Positions 5,294 through 50,884 of a stretch of 64,000 nucleotides of DNA are shown in pieces. Source of the stretch: Amphiscolops sp. MND2022 (taxonomy: Eukaryota). The notes below the pieces were generated by a model that was not told the origin of the DNA, searched no databases, and saw nothing but the letters and a program-made list of their open reading frames with translations. Within the stretch, counting starts at the first letter, position 1. Each line of letters begins with the position of its first letter. Position numbers and translations under genes: made by a program. Location of the stretch: positions 42,222,001-42,286,000 of the forward strand of contig OZ076414.1 of NCBI GenBank assembly GCA_964187785.1, in the 5' to 3' direction.

Positions 5294-5359
5294 CTAGCGA
5301 CAAATTTGGTCAAGGGAGTTGTTTCTTCTGACAAATGGTTTTCGAGATAATGCATTTTT

Positions 5360-5972: not shown

Positions 5973-6156
5973 TTTTTAAGTATCAAAATACATAGCCTCA
6001 AAATACTATGTAAAATAATTTTTGTACTTTTAATTTAATTTCGAAATAAAAAACACCGAGCCTATGTTTGAAAAACAATGAATCAAAGAATGGAATAGAA
6101 GTCGCACAATTAGATGGATGTAATTTCAACTGTAGTTTTATATCTTCTTTCATCAT

Positions 6157-13064: not shown

Positions 13065-13772
13065 TGTAACGTCCGCCTCTGGCATGACAAAATTTCGATG
13101 AAAAATTCGAAATGTGCGACATCGCAATTCAGCAAAAAAGATGGCCGACCTAATAGGAGCGGGAAACTAAAAAAAAGTGAGAGCACGCTGAAGAGAGCAA
13201 AAAAGGAAGGAACCAGAAAGCAGAACGACTATTGACATGAAGATTCGCACAGTGCCGAATGTGACGAGTACTACCCGGTGTTATTCCATCCCTCTGGGAG
13301 AGAATGCAAAACCGTTCCAGAATGGCATGACTGGATCCCCGAAAACCTACAAACAGTAACTGTACTCCCCTTTGGGGCTCATCCCCCTTAATTTGTTGAT
13401 TTGTAATGTATTTTGCTGTTTCGCTTATGCCTGACCTTCTAGATCAGCATTTCATATCTTTAACTGTCAAAATGGTACTTTTTGGATAAACGCTTTTGGA
13501 CCTCGGAAGTATGTAGGAAGTCGTAGGAAGGCTTAGGATTATGTAGGAACGTTTTTACAGGCTTGTGGGGCGTGTCCGGACTTTGAGAGTGCCGGCACGT
13601 CGCCTCGGAGCTCTAACTAGAGGAGCCTCCTTAGACGTTAGAAAAGTCCCCCATGGAGACCGTTTTGGGAGAAAAGCCAGTGTCTAGGAGTGTAGTAAGA
13701 CAACGGTCTCCTGTTTAAGCACCCTAGGCATTGTCCCACTTCCGGGATGTGCGCCGCTAGCCGGACGTTACA
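13065..13772 (+). repeat. 5' LTR (708 bp)
   Basis: TGTAACGTCCG...CGGACGTTACA 11-bp inverted ends. Six substitutions and one 1-bp indel versus the 3' LTR by manual comparison. Confidence 0.97.
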
Positions 13773-13788: not shown

Positions 13789-13806
13789 TGGCGACCACAG
13801 AGGGAT
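13789..13806 (+). promoter_or_regulatory. Primer binding site, tRNA-Arg-like
   Basis: TGGCGACCACAGAGGGAT resembles the complement of a tRNA-Arg(UCG)-type 3' end (...TCCCTYYGTGGTCGCCA). It lies 16 nt downstream of the LTR end. Confidence 0.7.
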
Positions 13807-16800: not shown

Positions 16801-16926
16801 TCATTTACCACTTGTTTTGCGGGGGGAAGGGAGTAGACAGAAATCAAAAAAAAATTTTTTTTGCTTGTTGCGTGCCGCGTGGAAACTTCGTACGCAGCGC
16901 GAGCTAAAATATCTCATCCCGTGGCC

Positions 16927-19900
16927 ATGGAACGACGCGAAGCTAACGCTACCATAAGCGACCTCCACGCCACCAATCCTTTCAGAAGGGGAACGGAAGC
17001 CACGACCGAGCAAAACGAATGTAGACTAGATTCCGCCATAGCAGCCATGTTTTCAGAAGTCATGTCTTACTACGTACCGAGCCAGGAACAAAACGCGGAG
17101 ATAGTCGTTGCCACCAGCCAGCCTAACTCCTCGCGAGCCTCCCCCGACAGCACCAATCCACAGGATGGTGCTGAAACCACCATACAAAGAAACACATGGC
17201 CTCCGCTGGAAGTCACTGACTACAGCTTGGAAAATTGGCCAAACTCCAACCAAGGGCCCACATGTGAGCCCAGCACTGCTGACACCCCCATCGAACAAAA
17301 TGACACTCTAACGACTCCACAGGTGGACCCACGGACGGCGGTTGTCGAGAGGAACCCCTCGGGTTCCCAGGAGATAACCAATAGCATAGGCGGGAATCCC
17401 TTTCGGAGCGGATATACGCTACTGGGAGCACCGGCGAAAGCGTCGAGTAGGCCGGCGGAGAATTTGAAAACAACCGTGACAGAGAATCCGTTAAGATACG
17501 TTTTTCGAACGCCACCCTCGGCGGGTCCAAAAGTTAACTACGCGAATGCGAGCCGAGCATCCCACACGCCAAGCTCTCAAGCCAGCGCCGACACCAATCC
17601 TGACTCAACGATAACCAAAGCAAGAAAGGAAGCGCAAGCAATTCGAGAAGACTTTCAGAGTAGCCTAGCTCAGCTAGCCCAAGTCCAGACGAAGCTGGCG
17701 CGGGAAAACAACGAACATGAAATGCGCGCCGACATGATAATGAGGGACATGGACGAGCTGCGAAGAGGTCTTCTGGAAATTCAAGCGGAAGGACGACAGA
17801 ATCAGGGCCGACTGGAGGCGTCTATGGCGTCTCTCAACGATCTGATTAAACAGAGAGAGACCACGGCGGATGCCCGCATGGCTGAGATGTCTGCAGTAAT
17901 GAGAGAAAGAGACCGCCAGGCCGACGAACGCATGAAGGCAATGACGAACACAATGCAGCGCCGCGACATGGACTCCAATGTCCGCATGGCGGACTTGATG
18001 ATGGCAATGCAAGATTTGACGCTAGGCGTGAAAGCAATTGTGTCGCAGACCCCAGCACCGCAGGCACAGACAGCGCCACGGGCGCCCCAAAAATACCAGC
18101 AAGCCGATATGCCCTCTACAAGTGCAGCTCCCCAACCTCCCTACCGGACGGTAGCACAGCACACAGTGGAGCCTGCTAGGCCCCCAAAACTAGTGCCACC
18201 CGCGACGTACAGGCGTGACCCGTCGAAAGCTAGTAAAATGGCTAAGGTATCCCACGCAGAGTCACGAGACGCCGGCACAGACCCCATGACTGACCCGCCG
18301 TCGTTCGACCAGTACGCCCGCGGGGCATCGACCTCGGGCGATTTCCACTCCGTTGCCGACGAAATGAACACCCGCAGGACCAGCTATTATACGGCCGATT
18401 CCAGCGCGGCATTCCGCCTACCTGCGCGAACGCAGACGTTCAGGGACTTTGTTCCGCGGCCAGTGGCCACCAGCACGCAGCGCAAGGTGACAACCAAGCG
18501 GAACCTACAACAAAGCAAAGGCGAACATGGCGACCTGGAAGAGATGCCCTCGGTGGCAGAAGAGGCCCCGGACACGCCGAGGACTACCCAACGACAGGCA
18601 CTAGCAGAAGCAATATCCACAGCCATGTCTAAAGGCTTGGAGCCGTTGCTCGCCGTCAAAGAGTCTAAAAACAAACCCACGAAGTACAGAGGAACCCGAG
18701 ATGGAAATGCAGATGGGTGGATGATGCTGATGAAACGCCACTTGGAAAACGCACACCCGAAGGCGACCCCCCTTGACAAAGCATGGACGATAATTGAGTA
18801 TCTGGAGCATGAAGCCAGAGACTACATCACGAACAAGTCCGAGGCCGAGAGGGACACGGATGAGAAAGTGTTCGCGCTGTTGGCGCGTCGCTTTGGGACC
18901 GGCTCCAGCAAAATCCACATCCAGCAGCAATTCAGAACCCGCAATCAGAATAGCGAAGAGGACTACATGCAATACCTTGATGCCCTCGAGGGCTTGCGTA
19001 GCCAGGGTTACCCTAATGAGGAGGTAACGGTTCGTAGATACGAAATCATGCAAAGATTCATCGAGGGAGTACGCAACTTTGAATTGAAAAGAAACCTCGC
19101 GCTGATGTACGCACCGGAACAATACGTGGAGGCTCCGCCGACAGTGGAAGCCCTTCGCTTCACGGTACAACAATATTTACGCATGCGCGGCTCCGCTCGC
19201 TCGGACAACTACCCAATGATACCCCCTCAACAACAACAGGCCAACCTCCCACAACCTAATCAGTCTCCGGCAGCACCCCTGCCGGCCCAAAAAATGCAGC
19301 AGCAGCCCCCCCAACCAGCGGCATACCAACAACAACCTGCGCCACCGGCAGCCTACCGACAGCAACCCCAACGGGCGTGCTTCAATTGCGGAGATCCGTC
19401 GCACTTCGTGGTGGACTGCCCCCTGAAGGACCGCGCACGGAAGCCGGTGCAACAGCAAGTGAACTCCTGTCACACGAACCCGTCCGGCAGTTGGATGTGC
19501 CCCTCTCAGCCACATGGCTTGAACTATGATGTTTTCCCAGCATCCCTACCAACCCAAGGCACAGTTGCCTTCTGCATCAATTGCGGCCGTACCGAGCACT
19601 CGGCGTCGGAATGCATGGCCCCGGAGCACATGAGCCACGAAGAGCAAATCCGTGCAGCGTGGTATGCTCCTTCGCCAAGTCAGTTCGACGGCCTGGGGCA
19701 AGACGACCAGGTCCGGGTAATATCGATAGCGGAAGATGGAGGCCCCTCCCGACCGGTGGTAGTCACCTGTGGCGAGAAGCAGGTACTCACCACGCTGGAG
19801 GCACCCGCCCCAGATTGCACAGAAACACTTATCTCGATACACCTACTTCTCTCGGTCGAGCAGAAGTCGAAGCCCACGCTGACCTTAACGAAGCTGAAAG

Positions 19901-22500
19901 AGGAGTTATGCAGAAACGTGAAATATACGATCGCCGCGCGACCGCTTCCGCATTTTGCAAGGGAAGACGAAACGAAACTGGCCCCAATACAGAAAGTCAA
20001 AACCATCTCTCCGGTGCCGGTAGCCATCAACGTCGACGGTGTAGACATGAAGTTCGACGCTATCGTAGTCCTAGAAGGTCACTTCCCTCAGGGATTGTAC
20101 TTGGGCCGCCAGGAGCTGCGGTGTTACAACATCGGGGTGCAAGACGCCCAGGGGGAGGCTCGCATAGATGAACGGGCATCCTTGGTGGTTGCCTTTGGCA
20201 ACACGATCCAGGAGCCAATACCCTTGTACGGGATGGTTGACACCGGCTCGGGTGTTTCCATCCTCTCCCTCAAGGCCTATCAAAAGATTGCAGCAGCCCA
20301 CGCCTTGAGCCTCCTGCCTTATGACATCCAGCTGTATGCTGCCAATGGCAAAACGATCAACACCATCGGCATTGCCGAAGATGTCAGCTTCCAGTTGGGC
20401 GGACATACCCTTCGAACCAACTTTATAGTCATTGCCGATCACCTAGGTGCGGAGGACTTTTTACTCGGCAGAAACTTCTTGCGCACGTACAACGTCCTCG
20501 TGGACTTGACGGCCATGAGGGTCACCATACGAGACCCCAAAGCGCCACGCCACTTCAAACCCGTCCATGAGGTAAGTGACCACGAGCCATCCTTAGTGAT
20601 ATCCACCGAAAAGGTAGTCCTAGGCCCCTATGAGCGTAAGCTAGTGCGAGCCCAAGTTATTTCTCAAAAGCACAATGAGTACCACTTCCGGAACGTAATG
20701 ATTCGCCCCCTGGGGGTGCATAAACGGTGCCCCTTTGTTTCAGAAGATACATTGACGTCTGTTGGAGACGAGGGCATTGTTTTCATAGCCGTACGAAACA
20801 CTGCCGCCTTCGAAAACGTAACTATTCCAACCAAAATTGTCCTTGGTAAGGCAGAACCTACAAACTTTGTGTTGCAAACTGTGGCTGCCGATACGTCAAC
20901 CGAAATTGATAAATCTTTGTTTGAACAAGTTAATAGAGTTTATACAGATGAATGGTTGAGCGAAACGAGTTCGAAATTCAGTTCTTTTGCTCAAAACTTT
21001 TTGTCCTCTACTGAGATGTCCGCGGAAGGGTTGTCGGAAAGTGAGAAGCATGCTAGGACAGACCCACAGTTACTAAAACATATACCAGGTCCAGACCTCT
21101 CTTCCGTCCTTTCTTCATGGGGGGAGGGGGCGAGAGATCAACTAGCAAGCGTCTTGAGTGAGTACGATGATCTTTTCATGAAGCACAAGGCTGACATAGG
21201 GAGGTGCAAAATAGCGAAACATCGCATAGAACTAGAGCCAGAGGCTATCCCGCACAGAGAAGGCGCTCGGCGCATGTCCCCTGATAAGGCGGCGAAGGCC
21301 AACCAAGAGGTGCAGAACTTGTTGGCCCTTGGCCTAATTCAACCCTCCTACTCGCCGTGGGCAAGCGGGATAGTCATGGTCAGGAAGAAAACAGGCGAAC
21401 TTCGCTTCTGCTGTGACTTCCGGCCGCTCAACGACGTGACGGTCAAGGACGCGTTCCCATTGCCCAGGATCGATGAAAGTCTATCCCGGATTGGCAATGC
21501 GAAGATCTTTACAAGTATCGACCTAGCGTGGGCCTTCTGGCAGATACCGCTAAAGAAACGCGATAGGAGGAAAACGGCGTTTGCCTGCGAACTGGGCTTA
21601 TTCGAATGGCGGCGCATGCCCTTTGGGCTGTGCAACGCTTCAGCCACATTCCAGCGCTCCATTACACGAGCCCTGCAACGGATCCAGCAGCGACACGGGA
21701 GTGTCGTCATGGCTTACATTGACGACATCGTCATCGCCACGGAAACCATAGAAGAACATATCGCACGAATCAAGGAAGTGTTCGAATGTCTCCGAGAGGC
21801 TGGATTCAAGATACGTGCCGAGAAATGCGACTTCATGCGCACGGAGACAAAGTACCTGGGACGGGTGGTATCCTCAGAAGGCATCAAGCCAGACCCCGAG
21901 GCAGTGATTAAAATCCAGGAATGGATGCCCCCGAGAAGCAGAGAGGAGCTTCAGAGCTTCCTGGGGTTCGCGAACTACTACCGGGACTTTGTGCCGTTTC
22001 ATGCAGCCAAGGCGCAACCCCTGCAGGAGTTGCTCAAGAAGAATCAGCATTTCCACTGGGAAGTGAAACACCAAGTGGCCTTCGATGCCGTGAAAGAGGC
22101 CCTAGCAAACGCGACCGCTTTGGCAGCCCCAAACGAAGACGGACGGTTCGTGCTCGATACCGATGCTAGCGCGGTAGCAATAGCTGGAATCCTGCACCAG
22201 GAACAAGAACACAATGGGAAAACCGTCCTACGGCCAATAGTCTTCGAAAGCAAGTCCCTGACGAAGACGCAACTGAATTATGGAGCGCCCAAGTTGGAAA
22301 TGTATGCAGTGTTTTACTTCATCGAGAAGTTCCATTCGTACGCTCCGCGTGGACAACCAGGCCCTATCATGGCTTAAAACATACTCCATGGACCAAGCCA
22401 TGATAGGCCGCTGGATAGCGCGTCTGGATCAGTACAACTTCGAGACGATCCACCGACCTCGCGCGCAGCACCGGACGGCCTCAGCAAACGGACTAACGAC
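16927..22500 (+). CDS. gag-pol: Gag-PR-RT-RNase H part of the polyprotein (frameshifted in RNase H)
   Basis: GCCATGG start at 16927. Two CX2CX4HX4C knuckles (19378, 19573); protease VDTG (20239) with LLGRNFL; RT SPWASGIVMV...FCCDFR...AYIDD (21715-21726); RNase H TDAS (22162). No stop or frameshift between gag and pol. Confidence 0.95.
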
Positions 22501-24525
22501 TATGTGCACCGAGAGAAAATCCTTGAGAAGTTGCCGGAAGTGAGCGAGGGGTTCAACTTCATGACCCAGAAGGACTATGAAGCGCTCCCCACCGTGCCAT
22601 ACTTCGATAAACACGGACGCCTGATACCAGACCACCCAGAGCTTCCACCGGAAGCTCGAGCCCAACTCCCACTGCTGTATATCTTGGGGAAGGGGCCCAA
22701 AAGGAGCTTGCAAGAGCCCTCGGCGAGTGATGCCCCGTGGTACCCTCAAGTACAGTGGGAAACGACGCCCACCATCGATGAAGATCACCGACCAAATCAC
22801 ATCCTCAGCATCGCAACCGGAGTGCCACCGGCACGCCTAGACACTGGAGAACCTGACCCTGCGCTTGACGGGATGCCTCCCGAGTGCCAAAGACAAGCCC
22901 ATGCCCTCAGGACTGTCGGGACAGAGCTGCAAGAACACTTTCTAACTAGGCGCGGCCTCAAAGATCTGCACTTAGCGCAGAGTGGGGACGTGCACCTCTT
23001 GGCGCTGAGGAAACTCATGAAAGGCGAACCATTGGATGACGCCATGTTCCCCGAAGACGTGCAGGACTTCGCTCGGCGCTACTTCCACCAAAAGAAAGAC
23101 CTGCTCTTCCTGAATCCGGACGACATCCTCTGCGTCAACTACGTTCCGCAACAGCGTGCGCTGCACGTGCGACCGTGCATGATAGTCATGCCCCAACTAT
23201 ACCAACACGAGATCTTGTATAGGGCGCACGACGAATCGGGACATCAGGGCGTAGGGAAGGTGCTAGCAAGAGTACAAGAGCGGCACACTTGGCCGGGCAT
23301 CAAGCGTGACATAGTCAATCACATTAAGCACTGCCTAACCTGCCAGCAAACCAAACACCCTGCCGGAAACCCCTGCTACCCCCTGCAGAACATCAACAGC
23401 AGCAACTTCAACGACCTGGTGCAATTTGACCATCTGAAACTGTGCAAAACCGAGTCGGGTAACACCGGTCTCTTGGTCATAATAGACCACTTCACGAAAT
23501 TCGCCGAGGCTATCCCGTGTGCCCACGACGAATATGATGCCCAAACCACTGCCAAGATTATCCTCAATAAATGGTTTGCCAGGCACGGCACTCCAGCTCG
23601 TATGCAGTTGGACAATGCCACGAATTTCACAGCTGAAATCGCGCAGGAGTTAATGAATGCATCACAGGTGACAAAGGTGACATCCACACCGGCGCATCCC
23701 CGAGGAAATGGACTTGTGGAGAGACAGAACCGAACACTGCTTACGCTGCTCCGAGTCTACACGTCGCGGCGAATGCAGGATTGGGACGAGCACATCGATG
23801 GAATCCTTGGTGCCTACAACTCTACTAGGCACGCCACCACGGGATTCTCTCCCTACATGCTCCAACATGGAGCCGAAAAGTCCATTCCCTTGTCATTCAT
23901 CTACCCGGAGTTTGCTGCGCGAGGATTCAACTCCAAAGAAGAATTCGTAGAACACCTTCTAGCCAGGCAACAAGAAATCCATGAACTAGTTAGAAGAAAC
24001 ACGCACCAAGCACAGCTAAGGCAAAAGCTAAAGTTTGACTGCCACCTCAAGGCCAAAGCGCACGCCGTAGGCGATGCGGTGTGGGTGTTCTGCCATATCA
24101 TACCCAAAGGTGGCACCCGCAAGCTGATCCGCGCATGGCGTGGACCCCACAAGGTGACTGATGTGTTGCAGGACGGACGACTATATGTGCTGGACACCGG
24201 TCAAAAGGTCCATTACGAAAGATTGAAAAGACACGTGCCCGCCCCCTGGGACTGGGCTGCACACCAGCCCTTTGGGCTGGACCAGAATGTAGCCATTATT
24301 GCCGATCCGTACGTAGAGGAAAGCAACGAGGAGATAACATCGGACGTCTCTCGAGACTCTTTCCTACCAGAACAACTTCCGGAAGTGTCGTTCGAAATGG
24401 AGCCGACAGGATCGGTTCACCCCGCACCATTCAGACTCGTACGCAAACGAGCGAGGAATACCCCGAAGAAGATTCAGCCACTTCGGATATCCCTCCGACT
24501 CGGACTCAGAAAGGGAAGAGAATGA
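22477..24525 (+). CDS. pol: Tether plus integrase part of the polyprotein
   Basis: HHCC (AHDESGHQG...HCLTCQ), DDE core (QFDH, LDNATNF, LVERQN) and GPY/F-like WRGPHKV. Confidence 0.93.
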   Translation, partial: GLSKRTNDYVHREKILEKLPEVSEGFNFMTQKDYEALPTVPYFDKHGRLIPDHPELPPEARAQLPLLYILGKGPKRSLQEPSASDAPWYPQVQWETTPTIDEDHRPNHILSIATGVPPARLDTGEPDPALDGMPPECQRQAHALRTVGTELQEHFLTRRGLKDLHLAQSGDVHLLALRKLMKGEPLDDAMFPEDVQDFARRYFHQKKDLLFLNPDDILCVNYVPQQRALHVRPCMIVMPQLYQHEILYRAHDESGHQGVGKVLARVQERHTWPGIKRDIVNHIKHCLTCQQTKHPAGNPCYPLQNINSSNFNDLVQFDHLKLCKTESGNTGLLVIIDHFTKFAEAIPCAHDEYDAQTTAKIILNKWFARHGTPARMQLDNATNFTAEIAQELMNASQVTKVTSTPAHPRGNGLVERQNRTLLTLLRVYTSRRMQDWDEHIDGILGAYNSTRHATTGFSPYMLQHGAEKSIPLSFIYPEFAARGFNSKEEFVEHLLARQQEIHELVRRNTHQAQLRQKLKFDCHLKAKAHAVGDAVWVFCHIIPKGGTRKLIRAWRGPHKVTDVLQDGRLYVLDTGQKVHYERLKRHVPAPWDWAAHQPFGLDQNVAIIADPYVEESNEEITSDVSRDSFLPEQLPEVSFEMEPTGSVHPAPFRLVRKRARNTPKKIQPLRISLRLGLRKGRE

Positions 24526-24556
24526 ACCGACGGTCCAGAACCCAGCACCGCCAGCG

Positions 24557-26557
24557 GTGTTCCCCGACCTGGACGACCTAGAGCCACTGTACTCCGACCA
24601 GGAGGAAATTCAGCCAGCCGCACCTCCAAGTCTGATACCATGCCCCTCAGGGACCTCGGCCCCGCTACTATCTAATCCGTCTCTGACGGATACCCTAAGC
24701 AACTTTCCCCTGTTTGGCCCCCGATCGGAGGACCCAATCAGTCCGGTGGAAATAAAACCACCGTCAGGAACCGAGGGCGAGGAGGAGATGGTCCATCGAA
24801 GTCCAGTCCAGTGCTCAACACAACCCGGTACCACCAACCGCAGAGGACGGCCTCGAGGCCGACCACCAGGTCGAGGACGACCACGCGCCATACCATCCAG
24901 TAAGACCACAACATCTTCGCGAACACAAACCACGCGATCCAGAAGAGGCCCTAGGACAAGGGTAAGCACTCGTGCACCCCCTCGAATACTGGACCGAGCT
25001 ATGACTCTGCCAGAGATACCCGAGACCCAATCACCACCGGAAAACCAGAACTCTGAGCTGGGACCGTCATCGCGAACATTACGATATCAACTGCGAGCTA
25101 ATAGAGCACCGCGGTACAAGTGTGGAACCTGTGGTTCCCGCAACTGTAGTTGCGTCAAGCGACTGGCCTGCGACTCGCCGGACCACCGATTGGCCCGGGG
25201 AGCGGTCATCCCTGCAAGGGAACTCTCAATGGCCAGGGCACCATATCATCCACAACACGAGATCCTGACCGTGCAAGCCCAGCGAGAAAAAGTTGAGGCC
25301 CCTCCGCTGGTACACCACCTAGTCATCACGGTAGAGAAAACATTCACTAGTGTAGAGCCAGAAGTGATACCACCGCTGGAAGAAACGCTCAGAGCAATGC
25401 ACGCGACATCTCCCTCCGACTGCCCCACTTACCGATTCAAGGAGTGGACACCACCTCACCGAGGCGGTCTGGAGTTCACTCTCCATGCCATCATACCGCC
25501 CTTGCCACCCTCAATAACGTTCGGCGAGCTAGCGGAAGAGGATAGCAGCCCGGAGATGGTTCGCTGTATCACCGCACACCAACTGTGGGAGAAATACCGC
25601 ATTGCCTCCCCGCCGGGAGACATATACCAGCCCACCAAAGGATGGTGGCTACTCGTCACCTCTCTCGACGCAACGACGTTGGTGTCTCCCACAACGCTGT
25701 TGATGTGCTTAGAGAGCTTGCGCACTGTAACGGAACCTGAGAGTACACTCTGTTTCCACCTGGCCGACATCCATCGCGGCAAGTTCCTAAGCCAACTTTG
25801 GCTACAATTGATTGCGGTCATCTTCTGCCGACAGGCGAAGATATACTTCTTGGATCGGCAATCTTATACGCCGGAAAAACCTGTCACGGTCAACGAAGCA
25901 CTCTCCATAGCACACGATTGGTCATCCACCAACATGGGAGGTAGACCGCTACGCCGCACCGTCTGGGAGGACCGCAAAGCGATCTTACAGCATCTAGCAC
26001 CCCAACCTGATGGTGACCAGAGCAATACCACTGGTAAATGGCTCATAACCCAGCCCAAGACCAGGCCGAACTACCTACCTTGGATAACTTATGCCAATAC
26101 AGATATCCTGCAGGCCCCTGGCACTGTGATACTGTGTTGCCCTGCAGATTTGCTCTCCTACTCTGCCACCACCCGTTATGTTATTCGCGAATACGGTCAG
26201 GAAAACATATTTCGCCTAAGGCCGGCAGTTGGCACCGCAATTCGTTTAGTCCGCTCGCCAACTGCACCTTGGAATAACGAAATTTTCCTTCTATGTACCC
26301 GAGCATCGAATAAACACCCACTCTTACATGAAGTACTCCATGCGTGTTTGACGAATTTGATACTCCAGCTCCATCGAAACCGAATTACCAGAATCCACTT
26401 GCCCATGTATGATCCCGAGCGGTCGATGAACCTCCTAGCAGCCTGGTACGCCACGCTACGCGATCACTTTGCAGACCAGAATATTGCGATAAACTTGCAC
26501 GATCGCGTCTATGTCTCGATAGCATCGGTGACGTCAGTCGATTTTGGCGGTAGTTAG
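24557..26557 (+). CDS. Probable C-terminal extension of Pol: Pro/Arg-rich linker, CxxC-x4-CxC cluster, two TARG1/OARD1(Poa1p)-like macrodomains
   Basis: The frame is open upstream of the GTG (RGIPRRRFSHFGYPSDSDSE). RYQLRANRAPRY resembles an integrase C-terminal basic motif. Segments ~25469-25858 and ~26081-26503 follow the TARG1 pattern (ITY..D, G..I.L, IFLLCT, L..L...I..I.LP, F....I.I.L). Confidence 0.7.
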   Translation: MFPDLDDLEPLYSDQEEIQPAAPPSLIPCPSGTSAPLLSNPSLTDTLSNFPLFGPRSEDPISPVEIKPPSGTEGEEEMVHRSPVQCSTQPGTTNRRGRPRGRPPGRGRPRAIPSSKTTTSSRTQTTRSRRGPRTRVSTRAPPRILDRAMTLPEIPETQSPPENQNSELGPSSRTLRYQLRANRAPRYKCGTCGSRNCSCVKRLACDSPDHRLARGAVIPARELSMARAPYHPQHEILTVQAQREKVEAPPLVHHLVITVEKTFTSVEPEVIPPLEETLRAMHATSPSDCPTYRFKEWTPPHRGGLEFTLHAIIPPLPPSITFGELAEEDSSPEMVRCITAHQLWEKYRIASPPGDIYQPTKGWWLLVTSLDATTLVSPTTLLMCLESLRTVTEPESTLCFHLADIHRGKFLSQLWLQLIAVIFCRQAKIYFLDRQSYTPEKPVTVNEALSIAHDWSSTNMGGRPLRRTVWEDRKAILQHLAPQPDGDQSNTTGKWLITQPKTRPNYLPWITYANTDILQAPGTVILCCPADLLSYSATTRYVIREYGQENIFRLRPAVGTAIRLVRSPTAPWNNEIFLLCTRASNKHPLLHEVLHACLTNLILQLHRNRITRIHLPMYDPERSMNLLAAWYATLRDHFADQNIAINLHDRVYVSIASVTSVDFGGS

Positions 26558-26977
26558 GAACACGTTTCGCTCTCTTCTTGGCAAATCAGACCACTGGCCT
26601 TTTGTATTGCCTTTTGTAACTTGGAAAGCACTTTAGGTTTTAACAATAATGCACCGGTGAGTGCAAGTTTTAGTAATAACCACATGAACTTTTTAGCCTT
26701 ATGTTTTGTGTGTTCGTCCTAAAAAGTTTGAGTGACCATCCGTTTGCGTGATGTTTTAACCCCAACTGTGACCTGTTTTTTCAGTTTTGTCCTGTTGCTT
26801 CGCCTCTGCGCGGCTTCCCCAGTTATCACATCAAACAAATCAGTCTTGCCATCACAATCTTCGGTGCTAAACACTCCTTTATTATCATTTCCAACGGACG
26901 CATCTGCGCGAAACCGCCTGCCTGCACCCCAAAACGCTGCGCGTGCCCAACAAACCACAAGGAGCGATGCACCTCCA

Positions 26978-29900
26978 ATGATGAGCGAAATAGATGGTCG
27001 AGTCGACCAACTAGCTCTCGTTCAAGACACTCTACTAAACGGAGCGACACCCACAATGATCGCTGGCTTTGCCATGATCATCGCCCAAATCCAAGCCCAG
27101 GCGGCGTACCCTGATGTCAGTCTCACCATCACCAGCCGGGTCGGCCCGATAGAGCGCTCTGCCATCTTTCGCGACGGTGCCTGGCACGGGTACGACTTGA
27201 CCCATAGCCTGATTGATCCCCGCTCCCACTTAGTCTTTGGAGAGCCTACTAGGCCTCCCATGGACCAGGAGCGATCACTGCGCATTTCGCAATCGGCAGT
27301 GCAGACACCAACTACAACCCCGTTGCCCTCACCACACCCTGTACGATTCAGCTGCACACTGCCAATGGTGCCACCCCCAGTGCTAACACCGCCCATGCCT
27401 CTGGCATCGGACGGTATCCGACTACTGACAACCCAGACATCCAACTTCATGCTTCCATCTGCCTTTCAGGGGGAAGGGGTGCAAGTAGGCAACACAACAA
27501 GCACCACCCTGAGCGAGGAACAGCCCAGAGACAGCCGCCCCGCGAGAACAGTGACGTTTAAGGACTCGTATGAAGAATTGATCCAATCGTCCTCCAGAAC
27601 CGAACCACAAGTCTCGGAACCAGCCAGCCTAGTAGGCTTCCAGATGGACCCACAATTGCGACAACGCCAACGAGAACAGCAGAAAGCTGAGAGCAAGGCG
27701 GCCAGCACCGTGGTAGACCTCCGGGAGAAGATTAACGCTGGAAAGCGAGCTAGAGAGGCGGCCGAACAGGCTGGGCAATCGAGCTCGACTACTACCCCGC
27801 AACCCCCCGCTGCATCGCCCACACAACCAGAGGCCAGGAGACCGAGAGTAACGCGCGAGCTCCTCACACATGCAGAAAAACGGCAGCTGGACATCACTGC
27901 ACGCGACGCACTGCGTCTCCAGCGGGAAGTGCCAACCACAACGTCACCAGAAGACCCACTACGACAGAAGTTCGAGGTCGCTACTGGAACAGGGGACCTC
28001 GCCACTAGGCAGAAAATAGAGAAAGCCACAGTGGGAGTACTCTACAATCGCCCCGTCAAGAAACCCGTGTTCACTCGGGACGGATGCCCCCCATGGTTCA
28101 ACCGCATGCGGGCAGAACTGGAGAGAGTGAACTCAACGTACATGCGTGTTCCCGACAGCTTCCTCCGACAGCGCCCTGGCCGCTTTGACGAAGACCGCCT
28201 GCGAACCAAGAACTATGCGCGGAACCCTGTTACAATCTTGCCCATGGGAAAGGACCTCCTACAGAAAACTAGGATAGCCTTCTTCGTCGACTCGACGATG
28301 AAGTCTTCCTTCAATTCCCACAACACCCTCATGGATGTCAGAATACTGAATATGCCTTGTACCACACTGAATGAGATGGCCGAGGTGACTGACAAAATGT
28401 TCACCCAAGCGGGAGCAGAGACCATCCCACTTCCTCCGTTGTTGGTGTATTCGAACGTGATAGACCACCTCGCTCTGCGGGGCACCCTGGAATTCTTCCG
28501 GCCGGACCATGAGAGGTTCACCGAGGGGTTCGTCACTGACGAGGTAACTAACTATGTGCAGACCATGGCCAACATTGTCCAAGCCATGCGCAGAAAGAAA
28601 GCCACCACTGGGACGGTGTTTATGTCACCTCCAGGCTACGTATACTTTCCCCGGACCCTTCAACAATTCTTGTACTTAGTGACGGAGGCCGCATATGCGA
28701 GAGATCTGCCTTTCTACATTGTGGCGCCCAACCTACGCATCAATAACAATAGTTGGCGTCCCTGCGAAGCCTCATACCCGGCCTTCATCGCCGAAGTCTC
28801 CAAGGCCCTCCAGTCATACGTTGGTTACCGCGGCAATTCCCAAATGATAATAGATGAGGCCACAGCGTTCGACTATGGCATGGAAATGGCCCGTCGATCA
28901 ATGAAAGAGCGCGGAGACCGGGTAGTAAATGACCCAAACGAGAACGAGCGTGATAACCTGGTGGATAACCTCTGGTTTGAACGCCGGGATGAATCCACCC
29001 TGGATGAAAAGACGCACGAACCCAAATTCCACAAAGAACTCACGAGCCTGATGAAGAAAACTGAAACGATTCAAGGCGATAGGAAGAACTCGTCCATCTT
29101 CCCTATAGCGCAAGTGTCGTTGGACGCTGAACCTGGGCTAAGATCACCCACCTTAGCCATGCTGTCAATACTGGCCCAAGATATCGTACGAAGGAATACT
29201 CGAGAGCCAACACACACGTACCAAACATGGCACGACCAACTGCGGGAACCTCTAAGCCAAGTCGCGGAGCGGCTAGGCATACCATTTCCTGTGTTCCTTC
29301 ATAACATCTCTCCCTTCTGGCTTCCCTCCCTAGTACAGGCCGAGTACGGCCTAGATGAGCAGCGGATGCGCTTGTACATGGACGCCATGGAAAGAGCCAC
29401 CATCAGCGAAATGCTAGCATATTTGATGGCCGTGGGGTTGACTATGATGTACCGAGGACCGTCATCCCTCATACAGAAACTCGTGCTTAACAAAGGAGGC
29501 TCAGCCCTGTTCAGCTTCTTGGTCTTTTCGCAAAATCAAAGGAGCTGGATATATGCGCTCATTGAAACTCTGGACCCGGTGGGTTCCTTGAAGTTGAAAG
29601 CGCAACTAGATTTGAACATTCAAGCTCTCCTGGTGTGGATTTATTCCACCTGGGTCAATGTTGCTGGCATCATGCATCCTCTGGATGAGTGCCCGGCTAT
29701 CAGCCGAGACCCCAGTCAGCTTCCAGGGTTCCTGTTCCCGACACAAATGGCAACATTGATGCTCGTGGAAACAGAGGACCTGATCCCACTCATCGCTCCT
29801 TTAATCTGGCCCATCTTCGGCGCAGTTATGGCCTTGCGGTATCCCACGCAGGCCTTGCGAGTGGCTGCAGTAGCCCCATCGCTCTCAATTCTGCACTTCG

Positions 29901-31009
29901 TGACCTCCAATGGGCCCCTTCAGGGTCCCACCTATCAATCAATAATACGCAGCTTCGCCAACTTGCGACCTCCCATGGCATACACCATAATCAAAGACCG
30001 CCAGCAGGTGGAGCACAACTACCTAATGATGATCAAAGCGCGAGCACGCAGCTCGCTCCCACTGCCAATGGAAATCCACCCGGTCGCTTGGCTACATGCC
30101 CCCCTTAACCCAAACAATGGAACAGTGGCAACTTTTGATGGGTGGGACGTGCCAGTTGTCTTGCGCATCTTGAGCACGATTATCCAAAGATTGGGTGGTC
30201 GCCGCAAAGGAGAGGAGCCCACTGGGTTGTTATATCCCTATGCATGCGACATTTCCAGGGTATACTGTGCGAGAGCGGAGCCCCGCGATCATACCGCCAG
30301 AATTCTAAATACCATCACGTGCTGGGCCCAGCCGGAGCTCGTAGACCTCGCCATCCACCAGACTTTTCAACAGCTGCTAACGACTGTTCCAACTGTAGCG
30401 AGAGAACCCAACAGGAAGGACCTGCCCGTGAGCACAGACGTTCCCAGTAACCCGCGCATTGCGCTAGAGATATTCGTGCGCCTGCATGGTCTCCAGCGAG
30501 AACAGACTCGAGCTGTAGGAGAAGAGTACGCTAGGGGAATACAAACATTCAAGCAGCTATTCACCCAGCATGGTCATCAAGAACTGGCGGACGGACTGCC
30601 AAACCTGGAGCCAACCGAAGCTATCCCGGGAACTAGCGGGTTGGGCGAAGCTGCCTCTGACGGCCCCCAGACCGTCCCTCCCACATCCCACCTCACTCAA
30701 GACACCGATGAGTCATTGATGGAAGGGGTACAAGACGATATCTCAAACGTCATGCCACCATCAGAGGAGCCCATGACCGACAATAATTTCACACTCTCTG
30801 ATGCCGCTACCCCTGTAAGAGACGAAGCGGAGACTGGTATCTCAAACATGGAGGCGGCGGATATAGAGTCGGAGCTTAACAACCTACTGACTATGGATGA
30901 GGAATCATCGCCCCCCTTCGAGGCGCCCGATTCGGCCGTCCAAAATACAGTGAACACCATGGCCAGCACTTCCACGCAGGAAGCCCCACAAGATCAGCTG
31001 TTGGAGTAA
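26978..31009 (+). CDS. ORF3, intact 1,343-aa protein (frame open from 26732): N-terminal domain, Pro-rich/coiled linker, SGNH-like domain, hydrophobic helical domain, acidic tail
   Basis: Over 4 kb without a stop, between pol and the PPT. IAFFVDSTM / NMPCTT / VYSNVIDHL / NSWRP occur with the order and spacing of SGNH blocks I, II, III and V. Confidence 0.8.
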   Translation: MMSEIDGRVDQLALVQDTLLNGATPTMIAGFAMIIAQIQAQAAYPDVSLTITSRVGPIERSAIFRDGAWHGYDLTHSLIDPRSHLVFGEPTRPPMDQERSLRISQSAVQTPTTTPLPSPHPVRFSCTLPMVPPPVLTPPMPLASDGIRLLTTQTSNFMLPSAFQGEGVQVGNTTSTTLSEEQPRDSRPARTVTFKDSYEELIQSSSRTEPQVSEPASLVGFQMDPQLRQRQREQQKAESKAASTVVDLREKINAGKRAREAAEQAGQSSSTTTPQPPAASPTQPEARRPRVTRELLTHAEKRQLDITARDALRLQREVPTTTSPEDPLRQKFEVATGTGDLATRQKIEKATVGVLYNRPVKKPVFTRDGCPPWFNRMRAELERVNSTYMRVPDSFLRQRPGRFDEDRLRTKNYARNPVTILPMGKDLLQKTRIAFFVDSTMKSSFNSHNTLMDVRILNMPCTTLNEMAEVTDKMFTQAGAETIPLPPLLVYSNVIDHLALRGTLEFFRPDHERFTEGFVTDEVTNYVQTMANIVQAMRRKKATTGTVFMSPPGYVYFPRTLQQFLYLVTEAAYARDLPFYIVAPNLRINNNSWRPCEASYPAFIAEVSKALQSYVGYRGNSQMIIDEATAFDYGMEMARRSMKERGDRVVNDPNENERDNLVDNLWFERRDESTLDEKTHEPKFHKELTSLMKKTETIQGDRKNSSIFPIAQVSLDAEPGLRSPTLAMLSILAQDIVRRNTREPTHTYQTWHDQLREPLSQVAERLGIPFPVFLHNISPFWLPSLVQAEYGLDEQRMRLYMDAMERATISEMLAYLMAVGLTMMYRGPSSLIQKLVLNKGGSALFSFLVFSQNQRSWIYALIETLDPVGSLKLKAQLDLNIQALLVWIYSTWVNVAGIMHPLDECPAISRDPSQLPGFLFPTQMATLMLVETEDLIPLIAPLIWPIFGAVMALRYPTQALRVAAVAPSLSILHFVTSNGPLQGPTYQSIIRSFANLRPPMAYTIIKDRQQVEHNYLMMIKARARSSLPLPMEIHPVAWLHAPLNPNNGTVATFDGWDVPVVLRILSTIIQRLGGRRKGEEPTGLLYPYACDISRVYCARAEPRDHTARILNTITCWAQPELVDLAIHQTFQQLLTTVPTVAREPNRKDLPVSTDVPSNPRIALEIFVRLHGLQREQTRAVGEEYARGIQTFKQLFTQHGHQELADGLPNLEPTEAIPGTSGLGEAASDGPQTVPPTSHLTQDTDESLMEGVQDDISNVMPPSEEPMTDNNFTLSDAATPVRDEAETGISNMEAADIESELNNLLTMDEESSPPFEAPDSAVQNTVNTMASTSTQEAPQDQLLE

Positions 31010-31597: not shown

Positions 31598-32304
31598 TGT
31601 AACGTCCGCCTCTGGCATGACAAAATTTCGATGAAAAATTCGAAATGTGCGACATCGCAATTCAGCAAAAAAGATGGCCGACCTAATAGGAGCGGGAAAC
31701 TAAAAAAAGTGAGAGCACGCTGAAGAGAGCAAAAAAGGAAGGAACCAGAAAGCAGAACGACTATTGACATGAAGATTCGCACAGTGCCGAATGTGACGAG
31801 TACTACCCGGTGTTATGCCATCCCTCTGGAAGAGAATGCAAAACCGTTCCAGAATGGCATAACTGGGTCCCCGAAAACCTACAAACAGTAACTGTACTCC
31901 CCTTTGGGGCTCATCCCCCTTAATTTGTTGATTTGTAATGTATTTTGCTGTTTCGCTTATGCCTGACCTTCTAGATCAGCATTTCATATCCTTAACTGTC
32001 AAAATGGTACTTTTTGGATAAACGCTTTTGGACCTCGGAAGTATGTAGGAAGTCGTAGGAAGGCTTAGGATTATGTAGGAACGTTTTTACAGGCTTGTGG
32101 GGCGTGTCCGGACTTTGAGAGTGCCGGCACGTCGCCTCGGAGCTCTAACTAGAGGAGCCTCCTTAGACGTTAGAAAAGTCCCCCATGGAGACCATTTTGG
32201 GAGAAAAGCCAGTGTCTAGGAGTGTAGTAAGACAACGGTCTCCTGTTTAAGCACCCTAGGCATTGTCCCACTTCCGGGATGTGCGCCGCTAGCCGGACGT
32301 TACA
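31598..32304 (+). repeat. 3' LTR (707 bp)
   Basis: ~99% identical to 13065-13772, with the same inverted ends. Confidence 0.97.
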
Positions 32305-36099: not shown

Positions 36100-38480
36100 A
36101 ACGTGTACAAAAAAAACATCAATATTTCAAAAACAAAAAAAATGAATTTTTCACTTTTCTCAAGTCGTTCTGACGAATTTTTGGCATACAAAATTGTAAA
36201 TTTCTCTCGTTAGAACATTCTGCATGCCTATTCAGAAAATTGAGATACTTAGAAAATTGCGAAATTCTGGTAAATTTTATTTTAAATTCACTATTTTGTC
36301 AAACAACGACCGAAACATTTAAACAACTATTCTGGGGTCATTTTGAGGCTCTTCTTTAACTCGAAACTGCAATTGACCTTCAAAAAGTCTACTGAATAAC
36401 ACTGACCTTCAAAAAGCCTACTGAATTTGTTCGCTGTTGAACGTTTTCAATCTTCCAACTATGGAAACTACTCAAAAAGTACGGAACTTTGCATAAGAAA
36501 AGTTGAATTTGGATTTCTTTCATTTCTGACTCATCAGGGTCATATTTGAAGTGATTTTGAAGCAAAATACTGCAACTCTCTTCAAAATATCATACTGCAT
36601 AGCTAGTTTGTTCGTTTTGGAGTGTTTTGAACTTTCATAGTCATAAAAATTTTAGGAACTGTACACAAACTGCGGGAAAAACGACAGACTGGAAAATTCG
36701 TGTTTGATTTTTTGGGGTGAAATTGAAGCAAATTTCCTTTGATAACTTGACTTCATTCTTTCGAGAAGTTTACTCGCCAATACTTTTAAATGCTAATTTG
36801 ATGTTCAATGTTCTAATTCACAATATCCTTCAAAATTTTGAAAAAAAGTGTTAAAATTGTGAAAATTTGTGGAAATGTTTGAAATTTTAGTCATTCGGCG
36901 GTCATTTTGAGGGTTATGAAACTGCAATCAATTTTCAAAAACTCTACTCTATTTCGCGTTTCTTTGATGCTGAGTGTTCTTATTTTCCTATCATAAGAAA
37001 ATAACGCAATTTCCAACAAAATTCGTTTTTCAGAGAATTTTTGTCTTTTCGATTCGTTTGGGGCATTCTGAGATAATATTCGTTCTACGTGGGAAACTAC
37101 AAACTTTTCGTCAAAAAAACGTACTGCATAGTTTGATAATTCGTCTGGTGCTTTAGGAACATTTAATTCAAAGAAAGCTCCACCAACAACCTCTAAAATT
37201 GTCAAAAAAGGAAACTTTCGATACTTTATACATTTTTCGAATCACTTTGAGACCTTTTCCAAATACTAATCAGCAAATACCTTCCACAAAAGCCAACTGG
37301 ATATCAACTGGATTTGTTGTTGAACCAATTTATTATTCTAACCCTCGAAATGCTTCGAAAAGTTCAGAGACTTTGCACAAAAACGCTTAAGATTCCAATC
37401 CACTTTCCGACTCACTTGTCGTTTTGAATTATTTCTGATGTAGAACACTTTATTTTTTTTCATTGAAAAAAGAAACTACATACCTGCTTTGTTTGTGATA
37501 GTTCTGAACCTTCTTATTTGTAAAAATTCTCAAAAATTGTACTCAAATAACATGAAGAAGGTACATAAACTGGAATGTTTTAGATTTTCGACAATTTTGT
37601 GTCAAATTAAAGCTCATTTTCACCAGTAAGAGGCACTTATCCCATCAAAAATCTTACTAGGCAACGCATTCAATTGTTTTTCAACAGTTCCAGAAATCTA
37701 ATCTATGAAAACGTTGAAAATTTCACAACGTTGGAAAACAAGCGTGGAAAATGAAAAATAGTTTTCAAAACGTTTTTTTTACTACTATGGGGTCATTGCG
37801 GCATTTTTCCTTGTTTTTCCTTTACCTGTCACTAAGTTTTTCGAAAAATAGACAAAATTTCTCACAATTTTTGAAAATCCGATTTTTTGCGATTTTCGTC
37901 GATTTCGGTCTGTATTTGAGGCGTTTTTTCAAAAGAAATTGCTTCTCTATTTCGAAAATGCCTCCCAGACCATGATTTTTTCCGTATTTAACGTTTTTAA
38001 ATTTCTAAGTTAGCAAGTGTATCAAACATTTGGCAAAAATTGCATGAAACCTTGAAAAACTGAACTTTTAGGAGTTTTATTCAAATTTGGTCTCAATTTG
38101 GGGCATTTTTGCTTCCAAAAATTTCACTTATTCCTTCGAAAAGCTTCTTGGATAACTAAGTGTTTCCCTTCTGGACGTTTTCAACATTCTAAGCCACGAA
38201 ATTTATCAAAAATTTGACAAGAATTGCATAGAAATGGTAAAAATCGAAAGGAAAATTTTGCAGTTTTTACTGTTTTTGAAGTCATTTTTGAGTCATTGTG
38301 GGGAGTTTGATGTCAACCAAAATGTCTAAAATACTCTATAAATACATACCGCATGATACTAATTTTGCGTCAGCTGAATTGTATGGGTGCAACCTTTTAG
38401 CTTGGATATAAATTTGGTGCTTGGCAAATTTTGTTAAAAGAATCGATCCTTTTCCATATGAAATATGGGCGAAAAAATTA
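36100..38480. repeat. Second, more diverged array of the ~180-bp repeat family with the same terminal segment
   Basis: Monomer motifs at ~36440, 36805, 37998 and 38184. Segment 38310-38480 aligns to 12975-13064 joined to 32305-32400. Confidence 0.6.
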
Positions 38481-41458
38481 ATAAACAAAATTTGTGAGGA
38501 AACATGAATAGTGCCAAAAAACCTGAACGGATCACATTTGAGCTAGCAAAGCGCTTTGTCCGAACCAAAAACTTCGAAAACAAAATGAAGGAGACTTTTG
38601 TAGGAAAAGAATTTTCAAGAAAGTTGTTCAGTGCCGAATAAATACACAAAGAGGACACCCTTTGGTATTTTAGTCTTCGGGAAAATATCCTGGTTTCCCC
38701 GTAACGCACTCTATCCACTGGGTCAAATGGTGCTGAAACGAACACTGAAGTTAGCGAAGTTTTTATAAGGATCTCTCAGACCGTTGGTCTCAAAAAAAGA
38801 AAAACCATCACACAAGTAGGCTGTGATTTCTACCGAAGCACTGGCTAAAATAGTGGAAGTCATTTTCAAATCCACTTTGTATATGGTTCACCCTGTTTTC
38901 CCGCTTCTGCAAATCCAATTTGATCCCAGTCTGCTACATAAAACACAGCAAGAGTTCAGGCTACTCATAGTATGATCATTTGTGTATGGTGAACAGGGAA
39001 AATAGGAATATATGTTGATGGTTACAGGATGACCATAGATGAACTATATGTTTCAGTGTGTGGCTCCTCTGTTTCCGTAAATGATATTTTTGCATGGCCC
39101 AGCTAATCAACGCTGATAATGATGATTTTCAATTTCTCTGAGTCCATTTTCAACACAGGAATGGAAACAAAACCAAAATTACTATTATTTGGCATCTCAT
39201 ACTGAATTATGCATGTTTGTTCCTCAATTGGAGAACTAAGCTCCATTGGAATGAAAAGCACTGCAACTAAAAGTTATTACGTAGAAAAATAGTTGCTGAG
39301 AGGACTACTGGGTTTCGACTTTTTGTATTTTTTGAATGCCGGTTCTACCCTTAGCTGATATCTCTTGTGCGTTGAAAGTACAATTATGTAAAAACATTTC
39401 AGACCTTTAACCGCGAGAAACGTTCCAGACCGGAAATGGTTTTAACGAAAAATTGGAAACCACTGTATTTTTTGTGTGATAAATAAGTATGATGGAAACA
39501 AAATTTCTTGAAATTCTTTGTAGTTTAAATTTCAATGACTTGGTAAATATTAAGATCAAAAGCACGGAACGTTTTACTTGAATGACGACATGTATGGTCC
39601 ATAAAACATTCAACATGACCAGGAGAGCCAGGCTACCAAGCTTGTGAACCAGAGAAGACGAATTGCACAAAAATTACAATCTCCAAAACAATATTTTTGT
39701 GAACGAGCCACAGCAAGTTTTTCAATTCAATAAACTACTCAAACATAACTTATATGGCTTGGAATTTGATTTTCAGAAATTAAATGATACTGCAAAAAGT
39801 TGTGTTGAATAGTTGGCAAGCTGATATGCAAGTTTTGAAACTGTTGGAAAAAATGTTTCGGAGCAGTTGCATCCAAATTTTCAAAAAATTTGTCGATTCT
39901 GTTTATGGCCTTTGTTTGTTTGGTTCACTAGTTTGGTTCACTAGTTTGTTTGGTTCACGCGGAGGGAAACCTTTTTCGACAATTCGAACTGAAACTTGAA
40001 AAACTAAATAAGAATTAATGCGCCAGAAATTGTTGCCAAAGTTCATGTATTTCATGTCTCCAACAATGTTTCTGTTACGAAGGAAAAGGTCTTTTTTGGA
40101 ACAACGTTTGGCAAAATTTGTTCAGAAAGAACTAAAAGAAAAATCAATTCTCCTAACAGGTATCCTTACGCCTCGAGAGTTATGGGAATCAATGTTACAA
40201 AAACAACACTGCGAATATCATGTATTATATTTCTATGGAGAAGTTTCTGTTACGGAAAAACTGACTTTTAAACTGTTGTGAAACTTTCGCGAAAAACTTT
40301 CCGACTGGAATTTATTCTCGCAATACAATCATTCTCGATTCATTTATCCAGATGGAAAGAAGTGTGTCCAATCTGAGCACACTGGAATGTGGGTGTCCAT
40401 AGATGCTACAACTACAGTCTGTGAATTTCTTTTGGGCGTTCAGCTTCTCCAACTTGAGCACTTCTCTATAAAAATACTGGCTATAATAGACGACCTAGAG
40501 CTAACAATACTACACAGTTGACTACTGTTCTTTCGTTCTCTCTGCAAAACTTCGCCGTCGAATAATCAAGTAACTTGTGCTTTGGAAAAAATATTTCTGT
40601 CGCGGTTAAATTGGCCGTTATTTTCCGGAACGTTTTCGCAAAATTTCTGTTAAAATTTGCTGAGAAAAATTATTGCTTCAATAAGGCATCGTTTTGTATC
40701 GGGAGTTTAAAGAAGCAATGCGCGAACAACCGCTGCAAATATTCATGTAAGTTGAGTCTCCAAATATGTTCCTGGAACGGAGAAACTGGCCGTAAATTGT
40801 TGTGAAACTTTTGCGAAATGTTTTCTGAGATGTGACAACAACTATGCTGCAACTACAGTCGGTGATTTTTTGGGCAATCAGCTACTCCAGTTTGAGCACT
40901 TCTCAAAAAGTTCTCTCAAAAGACGACATTCTACACAGTTATCTACTGCTTTTTCGTTATCTCTGAAAAACTTCGCCGCTTATTGTCGGTACTTTCAACA
41001 ACAGTCCAAACCCTGATGGCTCTACTTTTGGAAACTTTCTGACTATGTTGGGTTATCTTCGTGTCAAAATCCTCTACACTACAAAAAAAAACAAAATAAG
41101 TTTACCTAGTTTTTACAAAAATGCCTCCCGTCGTTGAGGATATCTTCGAAATTTTTTTCAGTTTTCTCCTGCCTATGTGCATACATTTGTCTGTTACACT
41201 GGAATTTATTCAATATATAGCAAGACGGGAAGGTCTCAAAAAGCGCAAAGTTTTTAAAATATTTTGAGGACTTTTTAAATGAAAATCTGACGTAAGTGTC
41301 GAAACACCAAAAAGTTTCATTCTTGGAGAAATGGGTTCGCTTGTTTTTCTCCGCTTTAGTAAAACGCTATATAGTTCGGATTTAACGCAAAAATTCGCAT
41401 CGAGTTGAAAAAAATAGTGGTCGATATAAGTTGAAATGTCTTAATTTCAGTCAAACAA

Positions 41459-42089
41459 GCCGGGACCGGCCCAAGTCGGCGCCATATCCAAGGCTCAAAA
41501 ATAGCAAAAAGACTTCCAAGTGTCAAGTACTCTTTTACAGTACTCGAAAATCGAAATTTTTTGAAAAATTTTTTTCGAAAAAATTACATACACAAAAAAA
41601 TGGACCGAGTGGCGCTAAAGTCTCACAATGCCGAAAAACTGAAAGGGTGGACCCTTTGAGGTTTTTCAACATCCATTCTGTCGCAAAACATGAAAAAATG
41701 GAAGAAAACAAAAATTTTAATTTTCGGGAAAAAATCTCACAATGCCGAAAAAAAACTGAAAGGGGGACCCTTTGGGATTTTTTAACATCCATTCTGTCGC
41801 AAAACATCAAAAAAAAATGCAGGGGGGACCCTTTGGGGAATTTTTTTTTCGAAAAAAAAGTCTCGCAGTGCCGAAAAAAATGAAAGGGAGGAGTCTTTGG
41901 TCTCGCCCGGTATGGTATGTTACGCGGAAAAACAGGAAAAACCTTTTTGGTTCAGTTCGCTAGACCAAATAGTGCATTTTGATGCAATAATATTTTGTAG
42001 AACTTGTAGAACTATTTTGGTCAGTTCGTGTGGATAGAAAAAAAAAGAGTCACTATAATAGTCGCGTTTCACTTCATGAAGCGCCGACT
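41459..42089 (-). mobile_element. Non-autonomous Helentron/Helitron2-like repeat, copy 2
   Basis: Hairpin GCCGG-ga-CCGGC at 41459-41470, AGTCGGCGC at 41474-41482, GCGCCGACT-AAAAA at 42081-42089; internal ~120-bp subrepeats. Confidence 0.7.
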
Positions 42090-42094
42090 AAAAA

Positions 42095-42474
42095 TGAGAT
42101 GTTTGAAACTGTCTCATGGTGCCAAAATTGTAGAAGGGGGACTCTATGTGTTTTTTTCACATGCATTTTTTTGCAAAAAAAACGAACAAATGAAGGTGAG
42201 CTTTTGGAGACATAAATCTTTTTGAAAACATGTCTCTTAGTGCCGAAATATAATTGAAAAGGGGACCTTTTAGTGTCGTCCGGTTTTGTATCTTACGTTT
42301 AAAAAGTTACAAAATGAAAGTGGGTCCTTTGCAATAATTTAGATGCGTTTCCCAGGTATTCGTTTAGTTGTACAAACTGAACAAAATTTTCAAAATTTCG
42401 TCGCATTAGAGTCTGCCGTAAAAAAATGAGTATTTGTAATAGTCGGGCTCTTTAATTGTATGAAAGCGCCGACT
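42095..42474 (-). repeat. Partial tandem copy of the Helentron-like family
   Basis: Ends in GCGCCGACTAAAAA (from 42466); body is similar to 41880-42089. Confidence 0.55.
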
Positions 42475-43266
42475 AAAAATAGTCTTTATTGATTCTGATA
42501 TTCCGACGGGCAAACTAACCAATAGCTGCTTCGGTTGCATTTGCTAATGCTGATAATAAATTGAATTCTTACGCGATTCGATAGATAATCAGTGAAATCA
42601 TTGTTTTCAAATTCAGCTAGGTCAACTTTTGCAAAATTCGATCTCATAAATAAGTCTTTTTGTCATCTTGCTTTTACCTCGTGTGATCTATTAACGTAGA
42701 CAATTTAACGTCCCTTTTAGACATTAGTTGATTCGGCGGACGCTGGAAGTAGGCAAAAAAAATTCGAAAAAAGTAACGTGGAATCTGACTCATTTTCTCA
42801 AAAGTTAGTTGGAATTCTACTGATGCATATCTCGCCGCCGTTAGCTGTATCTGTTAGGTTTTTCATAGGTCCTTTTTCAAAACTCCTTTGCGACTATGTT
42901 TTTTTCTCCAGTTCATTCGAAACAATTCGCAAATTTTTACTGACCAAGCATTAAAATTGACTTTTCTCTTGAGCTCCATTGGGCCGATTTCTGGATCAAA
43001 CCAAACGTCAGCTAATTTGACTTCAGTATGCAAATTTGGTCAGCTCGAATATTTAACAAAATTAGTTATTTGGAATAAGTTTGGAATCGTGAGGAATGGA
43101 GTGATGCGATCAATCCGGGTGTTTATGACCCTGAACAGTAAAATGCTGAGGAATTCAGTTTCATACGTCATTTCCCACTTCTGCTCATCAGAAAACAGAA
43201 AAATGATTACTGCTTATCTGGCAAAAACTAGCAGTATTCCGTCAGGAATCTCAAGATTTTGACCAA

Positions 43267-44272: not shown

Positions 44273-44276
44273 GTTT

Positions 44277-44294
44277 TGGTGCCGCGACACGGGA
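44277..44294 (+). promoter_or_regulatory. BEL primer binding site (tRNA-Phe/His-like)
   Basis: TGGTGCCGCGACACGGGA matches 15/18 to the complement of a typical tRNA-Phe 3' end. Confidence 0.65.
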
Positions 44295-44363
44295 AGGCAA
44301 ATTTAACCCATTTGAGCTTTGTGAAATTTGCCTATCTGACCGCTGTGAAAAAAGCAAAAGACA

Positions 44364-50870: not shown

Positions 50871-50884
50871 AACGGGGTCGGCAT

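Follow-up and report, generated by a model that had tools for sequence, protein, structure and literature searches.

Esterases of the SGNH fold have been captured by retroelements of several classes, and either catalysis or binding could be the reason that they are retained. GDSL/SGNH domains with intact catalytic residues have already been published in the third open reading frame (ORF3) of the gypsy-like long terminal repeat (LTR) retrotransposons Vesta of rotifers, where they lack transmembrane (TM) segments and coiled coils and are thought to be auxiliary, not envelope (env), proteins (PMC5408684); SGNH capture by LTR elements is not new. The GDSL derivatives of Athena-L in Terminons are likewise retroelement-borne SGNH domains without catalytic residues, but in Penelope-like, not LTR, elements (PMC5408684). 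According to the available part of its description, the esterase in ORF1p of the non-LTR element ZfL2-1 (PDB 4c1b) is active (triad D279/H282/S143, with N195/G165) and binds acidic liposomes (PMC3905857), and the available parts of two further papers present the OSK domain of the host germ-plasm protein Oskar (PDB 5a4a) as a dead SGNH domain that binds RNA (PMC5785220, PMC7250577). Here, we analyzed a 64,000-nucleotide stretch of Amphiscolops sp. MND2022 DNA (the window; contig OZ076414.1, positions 42,222,001 to 42,286,000), in which a ~19-kb LTR retrotransposon, very abundant in the 1.07-Gb genome (G000), carries in its ORF3 a disabled SGNH-like domain that now probably binds something rather than cutting it. 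Compared by description with Vesta, whose ORFs are ~1.3 kb with S/G/N/H intact (PMC5408684), the window domain is part of an ORF of 4.3 kb and no longer has His, Asp, Gly, or the Asn at its canonical position. A literature search, with Repbase and supplements outside its scope, found no other giant ORF3 containing a strongly selected SGNH domain with a fixed His-to-Arg change.

The domain was predicted to adopt a flavodoxin-like three-layer alpha/beta fold with SGNH topology. Its best structural matches, PAF-acetylhydrolase Ib (1bwp) and the BDI_0976-type esterases (3p94), include the N-terminal extension at 12-14% identity; these are active cellular enzymes, and the shared fold proves neither origin nor function. 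Atlas features likewise gave matches to the SGNH/GDSL superfamily. On the strength of the model, we regard the SGNH fold as almost certain. A preliminary description of this DNA had proposed a degenerate SGNH-like domain at 28274..28812, and all five peptides that it quoted do lie in this element, in one frame (28274-28813; amino acids [aa] 515-694 of ORF3), inside a matched fold that is slightly larger (28151-28834). A structural search of the kind that it had suggested agreed with its assignment; Pfam and hhalign gave no clear match.

The former active site is part kept and part lost. Ser521, described as kept in the preliminary description, comes after the first strand and is retained across copies and families (30/30, 19/20, and 16/16 loci), and both Asp520 and Ser521 occur in all 13 representatives that cover the site. 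The remaining blocks depart from the canonical pattern as follows: (i) the oxyanion-Gly position is C, L, or H in 13/14 representatives and Gly in P0280 alone, a distant relative that supports the register of the earlier Gly-to-Cys assignment; (ii) the canonical G-x-N-D is replaced by N-x-x-D, with Asn575 and Asp578 in 15/15 representatives at identities down to ~30% and I, F, L, M, V, or R at position 577, and Asn575, two residues before the canonical Asn, could be a partial substitute; (iii) D-x-x-H-P ahead of the last helix reads x-x-x-R-P, the proposed His-to-Arg change being fixed across copies and families (Arg676 in 16/16 representatives and in 30/30, 20/20, 15/16, and 14/14 loci, with His in one decayed copy of the 16); and (iv) the catalytic-Asp position (673) takes eight different residues. 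His579 is present in 13/15 representatives and in 20/20 loci at 30-37% identity, the exceptions among the representatives being P0097 (Tyr) and P0280 (Asp). The bona fide SGNH domains of the same genome keep GDS, G, GxND, and DxxH. Because the oxyanion Gly, G-x-N, and D-x-x-H are all lost, canonical catalysis is very unlikely to survive, and the residue pattern makes it likely, with less certainty, that the domain has no catalytic activity at all.

The domain is under strong purifying selection and holds a fixed place in ORF3 across families. In comparisons with five copies sharing 93-95% identity at the protein level, its ratio of nonsynonymous to synonymous substitution rates (dN/dS) was 0.038-0.048, the lowest among six ORF3 regions in 4/5 cases; against one copy at 97%, it was 0.12. 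Since it is also the best-conserved ORF3 region in 8/8 distant loci, the domain is not decaying; its motifs are kept in relatives at 29-35% identity. A search of the genome with the domain gave 150 scored matches at 92-100% identity among 2,960 candidates, a count that should not be read as a copy number; additional families appeared at ~75, ~60, and 30-37%. As P0141 and some other relatives have no close match in the same genome (best, 36-37%), the ORF3 lineage probably extends to other hosts; the source labels of the relatives are ENA contigs in all cases but one. The relative P0133 is labeled as a Bacteroidota metagenome-assembled genome protein on an 816-bp contig and is probably host DNA in the bin.

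A second, distant gypsy-type LTR family of the same genome (L119/L120, G000:C7 ~61.296-61.310 Mb; L121-L124, L031-L038), with a reverse transcriptase (RT) ~41% identical, encodes a macrodomain resembling TARG1/OARD1 ahead of the protease (PDB 4j5r, E 8e-9) and an intact SGNH esterase after the integrase (Pfam E 7e-12); it also has an ORF of 198 aa, an env-like ORF of 699 codons with 15 Cys and a C-terminal TM, and LTRs of ~1.7 kb. One genome thus holds a whole LTR lineage in which loss of the catalytic His is fixed while the domain is held at a dN/dS of ~0.04, and a family with an intact esterase and an env-like gene; this natural pair suggests that selection can keep a binding role of the fold. 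Intact SGNH esterases also lie upstream of endonuclease ORFs at L039, L047, and L057, the usual L2/CR1-type ORF1 arrangement.

ORF3 comprises, in order, a small conserved N-terminal domain, a low-complexity linker, the SGNH-like domain, a region of ~600 aa, and an acidic tail (29 D/E versus 1 K/R in the last 135 aa; found in 8/9 proteins). The ~80-aa N-terminal domain (26978-27230) is 32-34% identical in distant families and present in P0280, and a family search with it gave no match; the window ORF3 lacks the upstream start Met of its sister copies. A splice-acceptor-like motif precedes ORF3 in 9/12 related loci, which are related by descent (background, 0.1-0.5 per 500 nt), and suggests that ORF3 is translated from a spliced subgenomic RNA. 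The preliminary description had called this an env-position ORF in an LTR element; both the context (gag-pol-integrase ahead of ORF3, LTRs 99.0% identical over 710 nt) and the position upstream of the 3' LTR were confirmed, whereas a hydropathy and motif scan revealed no signal peptide, conserved furin motif, or C-terminal anchor. A moderate hydrophobic stretch at aa 1017-1035 (Kyte-Doolittle hydropathy [KD] 1.8-2.5 in 9/9 proteins) lies 390 aa from the acidic C terminus. Judged from its sequence, ORF3 is a large (~1,350-1,400 aa) non-envelope accessory protein, env by position alone, and position does not warrant annotating such ORFs of giant gypsy elements as env.

Our favored explanation, to which we assign a probability of roughly 0.4, is that the domain is an SGNH-fold pseudo-esterase whose pocket binds but does not cleave within an intracellular ORF3 protein, an anionic acyl lipid or phospholipid being the likeliest ligand. 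ORF3 would be produced from the spliced subgenomic RNA and work inside the cell, where the former active-site pocket, lined by the invariant Asp520, Ser521, Asn575, Asp578, and Arg676, would hold its ligand uncut; because Arg replaces His, which would suit an anionic head group, an anionic lipid appears likeliest, and the bound lipid could tether the particle or ribonucleoprotein (RNP) of the element to membranes for assembly or transport. If catalysis is absent, we put the chance of a lipid ligand slightly below even. Several observations weigh against this explanation: (i) no Pfam model of the SGNH clan (CL0264) matched the domain, although one of 42 family members gave E 0.27; (ii) hhalign, although its alignments place blocks I-III in register, gave probabilities of 0.1-2.6%, and these did not exceed the reversed or shuffled controls in every run; (iii) the block registers come from the secondary-structure order of the model and profile alignment, without residue-level superposition; (iv) the retained Ser521 and His579 leave room for catalysis; (v) the domain is charge-neutral (18 K/R, 17 D/E), unlike a simple electrostatic membrane binder; and (vi) the ZfL2-1 esterase, an active non-LTR ORF1 domain from which the lipid and membrane idea derives (PMC3905857, in the part available), matches weakly and, at Foldseek rank 15 (E 0.016), is not one of the nearest structures.

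The same conservation can be explained by other rationales. The fold might be a protein-protein scaffold that packs on the 600 aa after it and engages proteins of the host or the element (e.g., blunting host silencing), its conserved residues being structural. Those 600 aa are constrained almost as strongly (dN/dS 0.055-0.11 in five copies), and weak Atlas features (recognition 1734, which is below the trust line) liken them to helical scaffold proteins. The invariant polar residues, however, lie in loops of the SGNH active site, suggesting a pocket in use, and we consider a scaffold unlikely. We judge equally unlikely an Oskar-like pseudo-enzyme in which the dead SGNH domain and its basic N-terminal flank bind element or germ-granule RNAs, ORF3 steers the RNP, and the acidic tail is a nucleic-acid mimic or chaperone: OSK ranks 46th of 50 structural matches, below ordinary esterases, the domain itself is neutral, and conservation is concentrated in the blocks of the former active site, which are dispensable for RNA binding. 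Oskar is a host protein while the window domain is element borne, and sequence kinship between them is not in evidence.

The counts given above for Asp520, Ser521, Asn575, Asp578, and His579 would also fit a rewired hydrolase or acyltransferase, with Ser521 as nucleophile, His579 (with Asp578) as a base from block III, and Arg676 stabilizing the oxyanion or an anionic substrate. However, His579 gives way to Tyr and Asp in P0097 and P0280 while Arg and (where covered) Ser persist, it is modeled inside a helix, and we know of no SGNH enzyme with such an arrangement, its base supplied from block III; we find this rewiring rather improbable, and a little more so the fuller proposal of an undescribed LTR group (19 kb, TG..CA, 3-bp target duplications, 1,400-aa non-env ORF3) whose rewired enzyme (Ser521, His579/Asp578, Arg676) would aid replication by acting on an acylated substrate of the host or on an anionic lipid. 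That ORF3 substitutes for an envelope, permitting extracellular spread by lipid-modifying or fusogenic action, is highly improbable: its position, the splice-acceptor-like motif, and the conserved hydrophobic stretch are compatible with such a role, but the stretch is far from the C terminus, signal peptide and conserved furin motif are missing, a true env-like ORF elsewhere in this genome contains 15 Cys and, at its C terminus, a stretch with KD 3.0, and BFVD matches of the domain include no viral fusion protein.

The element has Ty3/gypsy-type features, namely, TG..CA LTRs, a primer-binding site, a polypurine tract, and the order gag-protease-RT-RNase H-integrase, with Pfam matches to zf-CCHC, protease, RVT_1, RT_RNaseH, and rve upstream of ORF3 (Table 1). 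The order gag-pol-integrase-tail-ORF3 was kept in 3/3 divergent elements examined; pol of the window copy is interrupted at two places, and many other copies have one frame of ~3,250 codons. Target-site duplications were exactly 3 bp in 13/13 complete LTR pairs (window, 13062-13064/32305-32307, plus L125/L126, L129/L130, L133/L134, and L137-L154; three further pairs with one end absent were left out), outside the 4-6 bp typical of Ty3/gypsy (PMC12440569, available part). The available parts of PMC12440569 and PMC11673190 describe 3-bp duplications solely for Troyka (Kuafuorterviruses), with CG..CG ends, a CX2CX8-10HX4C knuckle, an I/V/LADD motif, 100-400-bp LTRs, and no extra ORF. Membership in Troyka/Kuafuorterviridae was rejected, as the window element has TG..CA ends, CX2CX4HX4C, and YIDD, together with 708-bp LTRs and ORF3. 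The literature search, again with Repbase and supplements outside it, found no 3-bp target duplication made by a TG..CA element.

Table 1. Features of the ORF3-bearing element and of its SGNH-like domain (window coordinates)
Feature	Position	Strand	Remarks
5' LTR	13065..13772	+	708 bp, TG..CA, ~10-bp terminal inverted repeat; 3-bp target duplication just before
Primer-binding site	13789..13805	+	Complementary to tRNA-Arg(TCG) 3' end; 16 nt past LTR
gag-protease-RT-RNase H frame	16837..22377	+	CX2CX4HX4C knuckle, YIDD; broken near RNase H end in window copy
Integrase frame (H2C2, rve)	22378..24525	+	
C-terminal part of pol	24338..26557	+	Different frame in window copy; two conserved alpha/beta segments at end
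ORF3	26732..31009	+	1,425 codons stop to stop
Putative splice-acceptor-like motif (T-run, CAG)	26776..26786	+	Upstream of ORF3; sequence based
Predicted SGNH-hydrolase fold with N-terminal extension	28151..28834	+	ORF3 aa 474-701; predicted model residues 13-240
Block I, Asp520-Ser521	28289..28294	+	Nucleophile position kept
Block II, Cys543 at oxyanion-Gly position	28358..28360	+	Variable: C, L, H, G
Block III, N-x-x-D-H (Asn575, Asp578, His579)	28454..28468	+	
Block V, Asn673, Arg676, Pro677	28748..28762	+	Asn673 at catalytic-Asp position (variable); Arg676 at catalytic-His position
3' LTR	31598..32304	+	Polypurine tract before; 3-bp target duplication after

An AT-rich leader of ~3.1 kb (13806-16900) with no ORF longer than 153 codons separates the primer-binding site from gag. 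The primer tRNA-Arg(TCG) has 255 pattern matches genome-wide, and its genes form a tandem array with ~173-bp spacing on G000:C9 from ~57.54 Mb (L156-L158). The two pol-end segments (25541-25900 and 26051-26554) are conserved at 41-46% identity in distant families; they resemble a TARG1-type macrodomain by eye, a likeness that no search run confirmed. Elsewhere in the window, degenerate tandem repeats of ~180 bp occupy 11381-12949 and 36235-38243, with dispersed copies further right, and inverted copies of a repeat resembling a miniature inverted-repeat transposable element lie at 5353-5977 and 41454-42188. A second LTR element (43264-52034), which we take from its motifs to be BEL/Pao-like, has direct repeats 95-99% identical and gag-pol in broken frames.
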